Source: Octopus vulgaris
Lineage: Eukaryota
NCBI GenBank assembly: GCA_951406725.2
Contig: OX597827.1
Coordinates: forward strand, 39,246,001 to 39,310,000
Length of the DNA stretch: 64,000 nucleotides
Reading direction: 5' to 3'
The first letter of the stretch is position 1. Each line of letters begins with the position of its first letter. Below, one piece after another: positions 1-49,060 of the stretch. Under the pieces are notes generated by a model that did not search any database, was not told the DNA's origin, and saw nothing but the letters and a program-made list of their open reading frames with translations. The position numbers and the translations under genes are program-made.

Positions 1-1547
1 CTCTCTTGGACAATATTCTCAGAAGTAGGTATCGATTTAAATTTCTTCACATCAATACTTTTTGTACCAACATTTTGGTCTTTGGGTTTTCCATCATCAG
101 GTGTTTGGTCTTCAGTACTCAGAATATCAGCATCTTCAAGAGGATCTGACACAGTGTCTTTCGAAGATTCTAAGAAAGTCTTTGCAGGTTCTTCCACTTT
201 TGTTCTTACCTGAACTAAAGTGGGATCTTTCTCCTTCCAGTCATTATCCTCTTCAAGAGCTGAATATTCCAAGTCGTAATCTGATGGTTCAATTCTGACT
301 GATGTCACATCATCACCAACACTTTCTTGGACAATATTCTCAGAAGTAGATATTGATTTAAATTTCTTCACATCAATACTTTTTGTACCAACATTTTGGT
401 CTTTGGATTTTCCATCATCAGGAGTTTGGTCTTCAGTACTCAGAATATCAGCATCTTCAAGAGGATCTGACGCAGTGTCTTTCCAAGATTCTAAGAAAGT
501 CTTTTCAGGTTCTTCCACTTTTGTTCTTACCTGAACTAAAGTGGGATCTTTCTCCTTCCAGTCATTATCCTCTTCAAGAGCTGAATATTCCAAGACGTAA
601 TCTGATGGTTCAATTCTGAGTGATGTCACATCATCACCAACACTCTCTTGGACAATATTCTCAGAAGTAGGTATTGATTTCAATTTCTTCACATCAATAC
701 TTTTTGTACCAACATTTTGGTCTTTGGATTTTCCATCATCAGGAGTTTGGTCTTCAGTACTCAGAATATCAGCATCTTCAAGAGGATCTGACGCAGTGTC
801 TTTCCAAGATTCTATGAAAGTCTTTGCAGGTTCTTCCACTTTTGTTCTTACCTGAACTAAAGTGGGATCTTTCTCCTTCCAGTCATTATCCTCTTCAAGA
901 GCTGAATATTCCAAGTCGTAATCTGATGGTTCAATTATGACTGATGTCACATCATCACCAACACTCTCTTGGACAATATTCTCAGAAGTAGGTATTGATT
1001 TCAATTTCTTCACATCAATACTTTTTGTATCAACATTTTGGTCTTTGGATTTTCCATCATCAGGTGTTTGGTCTTCAGTACTCAGAATATCAGCATCTTC
1101 AAGAGGATCTGACACAGTGTCTTTCCAAGATTCCAAGAATGTCTCCACAGGTTCTTCATATTTATGTTTTACCTGAAATAATGTAGGGCCTTTTTCTTCC
1201 CAGTCATTATCCTCTTCAAGAGCTGAATATTCCAAGTTGTCTATTTGCACAGACATCACCTTAGAAACACCTACTTCCCTTATAACATTTTCAGAAGTGG
1301 GAGTACTAATGTCAGGAATGTTTGAATATATCACAGTATTTATGTTTTTTCCATCATTAGTGTTGTCATAGGTTGGTATTTCCACATCTCTTGTTAGAAT
1401 ATCAGCATCTTCAAGAGGATCTGATGCAGTGTCTTTCCAAGATTCCAAGAACGTCTGCACCGGCAATTGATGATATTCAACAACTTGTAGTTTGGACGGA
1501 TCTTTCTCTTCCCAGTCATTATCCTCTTCAAGAGCTGAATATTCAAG
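1..1547 (-). repeat. Coding tandem repeat, 321-bp (107-aa) unit: about 3.8 near-identical copies plus one diverged ~312-bp copy
   Basis: LEYSALEEDNDW begins at 272, 593, 914, 1235 (321 apart) and 1547. Unit: LEYSALEEDNDWKEKDPTLVQVRTKVEEPAKTFLESWKDTASDPLEDADILSTEDQTPDDGKSKDQNVGTKSIDVKKFKSIPTSENIVQESVGDDVTSVRIEPSDYD. Confidence 0.95.
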
Positions 1548-47789: not shown

Positions 47790-49060
47790 GGTTGTTGGTT
47801 ATTGCGTCGTTGAATGCTGGTAATATATATATACTTTGTTGTCAGCAGTCAGGGGGAGATAAATTTTCACTGGCTGCTGTTAGACTTCTTACTTATTTAA
47901 TTTCTTCTCTTGTTTTATATTTAACGCTCGAAATGACCTGAAAATTTTGCACATGTGCAAAAGAAAAAAGAAGAAAAAAGAACCATTGTTAATTAATGTT
48001 AATTAATTAGTTAAAATATTGATGGTAGATGCAGCAGTAGCAGGAACACAGTAGTGAAAATAAAAAAAAATAATATCCCTTTCTACTTAAGGCACAAGAC
48101 CTGAAATTTTGTGGGTACATCAACCCCAGTGTTTCACTGGTACTTAATTTATCGACTCTGAAAGGATGAAAAGCAAAGTCAACCTCAGTGGAATTTGAAC
48201 TCAGAATGTGCAGACAGATGAAATACTGTTAAGCATTTTGCCTGGCATGCTAACACTTATGCCAGCTCACCACCGTGATAATAATAATAATAATAATGAA
48301 AATAATAATAATAATAATAATAATAATAATAATAATAATAATAATGATAATAATAATAATAATAACAACAATGATGATGATGATGATGATGACAATGATA
48401 ATTTCAAGCTAGTGATTTTGAGGGAGTGTATCAATTACATTGACCCCAGTGGTCAACTGGTACTTCTTTTATAAACCCTGAATATAGTGCCCTGGCAGCC
48501 AACAACTGGTGCAGTAATCCTAGCAGAGTTTAATGCAAATAATAAAGTCTAAATAAGATGAAAATTAGAAGAACAAATGAATATCATTTTAAATAAATGA
48601 AGCTTTATTTCTTTAGGTTTGGAACTGAAATCCCATCAGGGTAGAATATTGAATTTTACTTTTATCTTTTCATGCATCATTTATCATCCTAATTTTTAAC
48701 ATACTTTCCTGTGCTTACAAAGGTCAAACAAAATTTGTCGAGGTGGATTTTTGATGGCTGGATGTCCTTCCAATTGCCAACTCACACCTGTTTCCAAGTA
48801 AGGTAATATTTCCTCATGTTTTTCCCAATATTTTCTCAGACATGTTTCCATAGAAGTTTGGAAACCAAGATCACCATTTACATGATGGTAACACTCATTT
48901 ACAACAAACATGCAACAACAAGACACAGTAACGCTCACACATGCATGCACATACATACATACATACATACATATATATATGTGTGTAATTTTTGGAATAA
49001 TGGGTATATTTAAATTGGTATATGTGAAGAGTATATCTGAAGGCGCAATAGTTGGTATAT

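Follow-up and report, generated by a model that had tools for sequence, protein, structure and literature searches.

A TDRKH/Papi-type gene of Octopus vulgaris and the giant acidic repeat frame that very likely belongs to it

The window analysed here is a 64,000-nucleotide stretch of the 2.8-Gb Octopus vulgaris genome (G000:C14:39246001-39310000; GenBank contig OX597827.1). Positions inside the window are numbered from its first letter, and sites outside it are given as C14 positions. The minus strand carries a gene for a protein with an N-terminal membrane anchor, two tandem KH domains and one extended Tudor domain, filed here as a TDRKH/Papi-type gene, and a long acidic reading frame that very likely belongs to the same gene (Table 1). 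The nine exons named by the initial annotation (exons 1-9, with exon 1 counted from its ATG as 47789-47696) were found to have AG/GT ends and compatible phases and to join into 424 codons without a stop, and the donor of exon 9 was phase 0, as claimed. As a complete list they did not stand: exons 1b, 9b and 10 had been missed or only guessed. The predicted stop-free frame on the same strand (4094..3) runs for 1,364 codons to the window edge, with a log10 probability of about -34 of being stop-free by chance at the stop frequency of the window. Its proposed length of at least 4.1 kb was correct as a lower bound, and its true extent is 22,429 nt.

The closest named match to the gene was P0002, a 626-amino-acid (aa) Argonauta hians gene model that maps in order on exons 1, 1b, 2-9, 9b, 10 and 11 and on a distant terminal exon. 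Conservation relative to P0002 was highest in the anchor (30/30 residues of exon 1, where the best 19-mer hydropathy is 2.09) and among the lowest in the KH domains (about 60%), and the Tudor exons were 65-86% identical. P0002 holds three tiny exons, all of them conserved in this octopus, which suggests that it is based on transcripts. For the tail, a HMMER search with its first 864 residues against 1.84 billion representatives returned 3 proteins only. P0003 (6,301 aa; 10 differences in 3,950 unique residues relative to the window gene) represents, to judge by its sequence, a second haplotype or assembly, either from this species or from a very close one. In this model exons 6-9 are followed by a doubtful insert, by exon 9b and by the complete tail, which ends at the stop used here; it contains 23 Y-S-x-L-E motifs as compared with 33 in the window gene. 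P0001 (ENA record, 2,849 aa, 31% identical) begins at residue 2 of exon 11 and probably comes from a more distant cephalopod. Protein-database searches yielded no other mollusc TDRKH (1/135 and 2/294 candidates passed) and no short octopus TDRKH; the latter result carries little weight, as the word searches also missed vertebrate TDRKH.

The direct junction 22112->4094 that had been proposed is unlikely, because exon 10, which it would skip, holds the last extended-Tudor helix, and this join was ruled out. The alternative route 14499->4094 is a candidate, and exon 9b, on which it depends, was confirmed as a conserved exon. Joining exon 10 directly after exon 9 gives a spacing of 12 residues, equal to that of the Nematostella homologue P0004. 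Like exon 10, exon 9b is phase 0/0, and the two have Asn and Leu in common at positions 5 and 8. Both are used by P0002, and only exon 9b by P0003; exon 9b may be additional to exon 10 or an alternative for the last Tudor helix.

P0002 departs from the long frame after codon 119 of exon 11 and ends with 12 other residues. The point of departure coincides with a phase-0 donor at 3738|3737, which scored 8.7 on a donor matrix built on the 12 donors of the gene itself (these score 8.0-13.5). In a scan of 84 kb of the minus strand, the 12 terminal residues of P0002 were found once, behind a strong acceptor and followed by a stop, and 0/500 shuffles reached the score of this match. The short route through the terminal exon encodes 592 residues, or 638 with both cassettes, which is the usual size of a TDRKH. 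It is likely from these comparisons that the gene makes a normal-sized form via donor 3738 and a giant form of about 7,900 aa by read-through of that donor, and we consider the splice joins, which were derived from sequence, highly probable. The initial description of the gene as rebuilt found no support, as a form of normal length is still encoded. The terminal exon opens with a consensus donor right after its acceptor, and this is the form of a recursive splice site.

The claim that the long acidic frame is part of the TDRKH gene was upheld as very likely, with two outside models joining the Tudor exons to it. The first Met of exon 11 is codon 61, and the 60 codons that precede it are conserved in Argonauta (Table 1). 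Upstream coding exons are therefore needed, and only those of TDRKH were found; a search of window 6163-4095 for a start exon of the tail's own gave no convincing candidate. The homology with P0001 continues past codon 119 and donor 3738 (39% over 300 columns). The first 60 residues of exon 11 (window 4094-3915), which are common to both forms, are conserved above the level of the Tudor domain and contain D-P-F and two W-x-x-x-[FY] motifs.

From 4094 the long frame continues for 1,996 codons to a single frameshift and then for 5,484 codons to the stop. If the shift results from one misassembled base, the frame together with exons 1-10 would encode 7,936 residues; if it is real, 2,457. The frameshift sits in a repeat unit with 7 extra bases; a homopolymer slip as its sole cause was rejected on that ground, and the shift would be explained by a duplication of 6 bases together with one additional A. 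In P0003, the corresponding place of another unit shows an 18-residue gap, which could hide a similar shift.

The tail consists of Asp and Glu to 23%, and no hydrophobic segment was found in it. Its net charge is about -60 per 400 residues and turns to +35 in the last 284, a basic end with ten lysine/arginine runs. It holds 29 complete 51-residue modules within 107-residue units, each module consisting of Y-S-x-L-E-E-D-x-D-W, a 21-residue spacer and F-x-x-S-W-x-D-T-x-S-D-P-L-E. The 11 modules of P0001 have the same two motifs with a spacing of 20-21 residues, and Y-x-x-[LV] is present in 29/29 modules here and in 11/11 of P0001. The spacings between unit anchors are multiples of three in 28 of 29 cases; 10 of them depart from 321 bp, and 9 of these 10 still keep the frame. 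Elsewhere in the genome, two stray copies of the repeat (310 bp and 393 bp, 91-95% identical) lie at C20:61971951-61972256 and C7:102001849-102002239; they are degraded, with stops and shifts, amid unrelated repeats. The 7,480 codons interrupted by a single shift, the frame-keeping spacings, the recurrence of the module motifs in P0001 and the contrast with these decayed copies are taken as evidence of selection on the tail. No exon junction was found in either fragment, and they possibly derive from a transcript. A genome search for a junction-bearing retrocopy returned one match, the locus itself.

The tail matched no Pfam family over the cut-off and gave no usable match in the Atlas. Its sole PDB profile match, REV1 (E 0.014), was taken as chance, and in metagenome contigs 0/45 and 0/598 pattern matches were confirmed. 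The predicted fold of one module had no secondary structure (predicted TM-score 0.13, from an 8-row alignment).

The identity of the gene was assessed against TDRKH/Papi and AKAP1. TDRKH/Papi proteins have about 560-630 residues and hold PIWI on mitochondria for the trimming of PIWI-interacting RNA (piRNA). With P0002 as query, the best matches among solved structures were human TDRKH (81 bits), Drosophila Papi (78) and Bombyx Papi (69), and TDRD1 reached 50. Pfam KH_1 matched exons 3 and 4 and two stretches of P0002, which places two tandem KH domains ahead of the Tudor domain; the structural model of P0002 contained two KH-type folds at a predicted local distance difference test (pLDDT) of about 60-85, and its Tudor domain stayed under 50 (2-row alignment). 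An Atlas feature search ranked AKAP1-labelled clusters (0.91) and TDRKH clusters (0.87-0.89) alike. AKAP1 has one KH domain with a long region before it. The only other KH match near a Tudor match in the genome was an AKAP1-like gene (C30:4.765-4.775 Mb) with one KH domain, its GxxG intact, and a Tudor domain; it is identical at 9/19 positions, ungapped, to a human AKAP1 19-mer. No second TDRKH was found in the genome by the Pfam profiles TUDOR (25 matches of 46 scored) and KH_1 (50 of 70) or by tblastn with P0002 (17 matches of 25) and P0004 (9 matches; 49/935 candidates scored), all of these being exon-wise searches that set a floor. The window gene is accordingly filed, on its sequence, as a divergent TDRKH/Papi-type orthologue and the sole one found in the genome, and its initial designation as a possible paralogue was left without support.

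The GxxG loops of the two KH domains read GTNR and GNNY in the window gene, GTNR and GKNS in Argonauta, and GRGG twice in Nematostella. Loss of GxxG abolishes RNA binding, and the KH domains of the window gene would bind RNA weakly or not at all. In the Tudor domain, the equivalents of L364, Y371, D390 and F391 are Leu, Tyr, Asp and Tyr, while human F388 is replaced by Cys and D393 by Tyr; L364, Y371, F388 and D393 presumably have roles in the PIWI-binding pocket. Four PIWI-domain loci were found in the genome. Searches for the CAF1 family, which were a weak test and set a floor, showed one PARN-like locus (C29:6360178) and no separate PNLDC1; the remaining loci of this family are TOE1-like and CNOT7/8-like. 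In Octopus maya, PIWIL1 expression is reported from the testis and the white body (PMC6522055).

Table 1. Features of the TDRKH/Papi-type gene and its long frame (window positions unless marked C14)
Feature	Position	Strand	Observations
Exon 1: 5' untranslated region from 47937, ATG 47789, N-terminal membrane anchor	47696..47937	-	in-frame stop just 5' of ATG
Cassette exon 1b, 84 nt, phase 1/1, basic stretch beside anchor	39456..39539	-	22/27 identical to P0002
Exon 2: KH1 start; loop GTNR, not GxxG	32956..33077	-	
Exon 3: remainder of KH1, KH2 start	30949..31150	-	Pfam KH_1 E 2.8e-4
Exon 4: KH2; loop GNNY, not GxxG	30268..30407	-	Pfam KH_1 E 3.7e-4
Exon 5: KH2 end and linker	28664..28778	-	16/28 identical to P0002
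Exon 6: extended Tudor start	25960..26165	-	Pfam TUDOR E 0.0023
Exon 7: Tudor core	25209..25381	-	Pfam TUDOR E 1.9e-10
Exon 8: extended Tudor	24014..24078	-	18/21 identical to P0002, 16/21 to Nematostella P0004
Exon 9: extended Tudor, phase-0 donor	22112..22266	-	41/49 identical to P0002
Cassette exon 9b, 54 nt, phase 0/0, basic amphipathic 18-mer	14446..14499	-	in both outside models; 15/18 identical to P0002
Exon 10, 111 nt, phase 0/0, last extended-Tudor helix	6164..6274	-	24/37 identical to P0002, equal length up to junction
Exon 11, short form: 119 codons to phase-0 donor	3738..4094	-	first 60 residues 55/60 identical to P0002, 38/59 to P0001
Exon 11, long form: open frame to stop at C14:39227666	1..3737	-	22,429 nt from 4094; frameshift near C14:39244110
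107-aa (321-bp) repeat array, start	1..1550	-	5/29 modules in window; phase-0 consensus donors at 852, 531, 210
Terminal exon, 12 codons, outside window	C14:39223846-39223808	-	8/12 identical to P0002 end

Between exons 9b and 10 (window about 7096-8360) lies a transposon remnant with matching inverted ends, which we take to be Mariner-like. Near-perfect palindromes are present at window 58750-59199 (arms of 224 nt, 97%, 2 nt apart) and 43930-44217 (arms of 140 nt, 94%, 8 nt apart), and broken frames at about 52750-54000 resemble a reverse-transcriptase fragment of a long interspersed nuclear element as judged by eye only.

In this family the anchor is described as located in the outer mitochondrial membrane and the remainder of the protein as cytosolic (PMC3854531, PMC6411938), and by analogy the window protein would be anchored in mitochondria with its tail in the cytosol. 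The combination of conserved short motifs with variable linkers suggests multivalent docking, and the tail probably acts as a short-motif scaffold. The long mitochondrial-surface scaffold proposed in the initial annotation would be plausible. In what we tentatively regard as the best reading, the disordered acidic tail of the giant form would serve as an arm for multivalent docking at the surface of mitochondria, and this arm would reach the endoplasmic reticulum (ER) via FFAT-type motifs that bind VAP; VAP itself is a possible partner, at somewhat less than an even chance. Under an assumed scaling law, the contour length of a disordered chain of 7,480 residues would be about 2.7 micrometres, and its coil radius would lie near 27 nm.

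Candidate FFAT motifs were scored with the phospho matrix of PMC7705450 (Table EV4) and with our own adaptation of it for conventional motifs, a score below 3 marking a candidate. At 2.5 or better, 5 conventional and 6 phospho-FFAT motifs were found in the 5,484-residue part of the tail and 0 in the first 1,996 residues. In both the window gene and P0001, the motif W-x-x-F-Y-[ST]-P, which is repeated, scored as phospho-FFAT, with 4 copies at 2.5 here and, in P0001, 9 matches, 5 of them distinct, against a shuffle mean of 1.8. A 15-residue block with an FFAT-like core scored 1.5 here and 1 in P0001; 11/15 residues are identical, and 0/200 tail shuffles reached this match. The genome also contains a VAP-like gene with conserved binding-face motifs, its VAP-like domain being split over exons. 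As the acidic tail of the Nematostella homologue holds a phospho-FFAT match with a score of 1, the ER link may predate the cephalopods.

Several observations weigh against an ER docking arm. The 5 conventional motifs compare with a shuffle mean of 2.15 and a maximum of 5 in 60 shuffles, and the 6 phospho-FFAT matches (3 distinct) with a mean of 2.32 and a maximum of 6. All matches lie after the frameshift, so that, if the shift is real, this allele is without them. The block in common with P0001 was picked after being seen, the conventional scores come from a matrix adapted from the phospho version, and P0003 is without the segment that bears it. The main repeated module is not an FFAT motif, which leaves most of the array unaccounted for. 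The non-synonymous/synonymous ratio among modules (0.68) points to only weak constraint, and most of the changes fall in the spacer. ER contacts are described as 10-20 nm wide (PMC8306308), far below the possible span of the tail. The joins are predictions from the sequence and from two outside models. For window 1700-4094, 24 rows were listed, none of them recorded as RNA; 14 of these, from 4 studies and containing 0.91-0.99 of the sequence words, are only presumed to be RNA and were left out of the evidence.

The repeat array itself contains further potential donors. In the modules, 25 of 30 Gln-Val-x sites read CAG GTA AGA, a phase-0 donor with a score of 12.1, and five of these donors, when joined to the terminal exon, gave open products of 1,554 to 2,410 residues. 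A further donor, 13 codons before the far stop, was a candidate below the threshold. From the codon use of the unique parts, these codons would be expected by chance in about 6 of 100 cases (an estimate), and the units share one ancestor; the repeat donors are therefore only a lead. The extension they would allow, which we consider quite improbable, is that a piRNA scaffold that had lost RNA binding was turned into a length-adjustable organelle tether, with donor choice adjusting the length by 107 residues at a time, between about 1,550 and 7,900 residues. If such a ladder exists, donor choice would determine how many docking modules are present and how far the tether extends from the mitochondrion towards the ER.

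The same two forms can also be read as parts of the piRNA pathway, with the tail as an expanded version of the Papi 'auxiliary domain' in piRNA biogenesis. Its acidic-aromatic motifs would then bind arginine-rich PIWI/nuage proteins, build intermitochondrial cement in germ cells and compensate for the weakened KH and Tudor sites. This is somewhat unlikely in our judgement, although the gene is the sole TDRKH found in a genome with four PIWI-domain loci and keeps, as Asp/Tyr, the D390/F391 pair needed for MIWI recruitment in mouse (PMC6411938). Moreover, an acidic C-terminal region is reported to control the activity of Bombyx Papi (PMC8938449), and Papi and TDRD2 are described as able to bind unmethylated PIWI (PMC12526068, PMC10212539). 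Against these points stand the loss of both GxxG loops here and in Argonauta, given that RNA binding by the KH domains is reported as essential in Bombyx (PMC8938449), the changes at the F388 and D393 positions and, as a weak test, the single PARN-like locus seen without a separate PNLDC1.

A docking or spacing arm for another partner is, in our view, unlikely. The invariant Y-S-x-L core in its acidic flanks could be an ATG8-binding, adaptor-binding or phosphotyrosine motif, and the presence of Y-x-x-[LV] in every module of both proteins agrees with this; a Ser after the Tyr is atypical of ATG8-binding motifs, however, and such patterns are low in information. Alternatively, the basic last 700 residues could attach mitochondria to microtubules, the acidic part serving as a spacer, by analogy with MAP1B/MAP2. 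The charge swing and the lysine/arginine runs are consistent with such a design, but P0001, which may be incomplete, is without the basic end. Very unlikely, finally, is that the long frame is no TDRKH tail at all and is instead a separate gene, nested in the last intron, that shares exon 11, or a rarely translated read-through, with TDRKH being the protein of 592-638 aa only. Such a reading gains from the joins being predictions, from the short route taken by the Argonauta model, from the 25 strong internal donors, which would hamper full-length read-through, and from the one frameshift in the assembly. It is opposed by the position of the first Met, which follows the best conserved stretch, and by the lack of a convincing start exon in the interval before exon 11. 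The P0001 homology across donor 3738, the join of the Tudor exons to the full tail in P0003 and the length changes that keep the frame in 9 of 10 altered spacings also argue against it.

If the two forms are real, one 22-kb exon yields a form ten times longer than the usual one, in an animal whose sole detected TDRKH is without both RNA-binding loops. A core piRNA factor would then have been recruited to a new structural job, or the piRNA compartment would be built differently, in cephalopods. The initial statement that TDRKH normally ends shortly after the Tudor domain holds in part; acidic tails are old in the family, with 489 aa in Nematostella and 164 residues in Bombyx (PMC8938449), and a tail as a kind is therefore already known. 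A published description of the giant tail was not found in the literature searched, and subscription papers and most supplements, which lay outside the search, may describe the gene model. That literature does not describe the scale of the tail or its motif array, nor the design with two donors or the loss of GxxG from both KH domains.

Among known systems, the window gene is most like TDRKH/TDRD2 and Papi in its N-terminal anchor, two KH domains, single extended Tudor domain, short form of usual length and retained D390/F391 equivalent. It differs from them in Cys at F388 and Tyr at D393, in the loss of both GxxG loops, whereas the zebrafish and C. elegans members are described as lacking only that of KH1 (PMC3854531), and in a tail of about 7,500 aa as compared with 63 residues in mouse and 164 in Bombyx (PMC8938449). 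Nematostella P0004 (934 aa, source label 'tudor domain-containing 6-like') looks like a TDRKH; it is collinear over anchor, KH, KH and Tudor at 28% identity and also has an acidic tail (residues about 446-934). P0004 has intact GxxG in both KH domains and a far shorter tail, in which none of the repeat motifs was found. AKAP1/Spoonbill combines a mitochondrial anchor with KH and Tudor domains as well, but has a single KH next to the Tudor where the window gene has two. The proposed ER link has its closest parallel in PTPIP51/RMDN3 and MIGA2, tethers of the outer mitochondrial membrane that are described as having a membrane anchor and, in a disordered part exposed to the cytosol, FFAT or phospho-FFAT motifs (PMC7705450, PMC8306308). 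There is no sequence relation to these tethers, and their one or two motifs lie near the anchor, whereas those of the window gene would lie thousands of residues from it, among some 30 modules of another type. Giant ankyrins, which use one very large exon with alternative internal donors to make short and giant forms with a long disordered tail, are unrelated proteins whose likeness to the window gene is limited to gene design.

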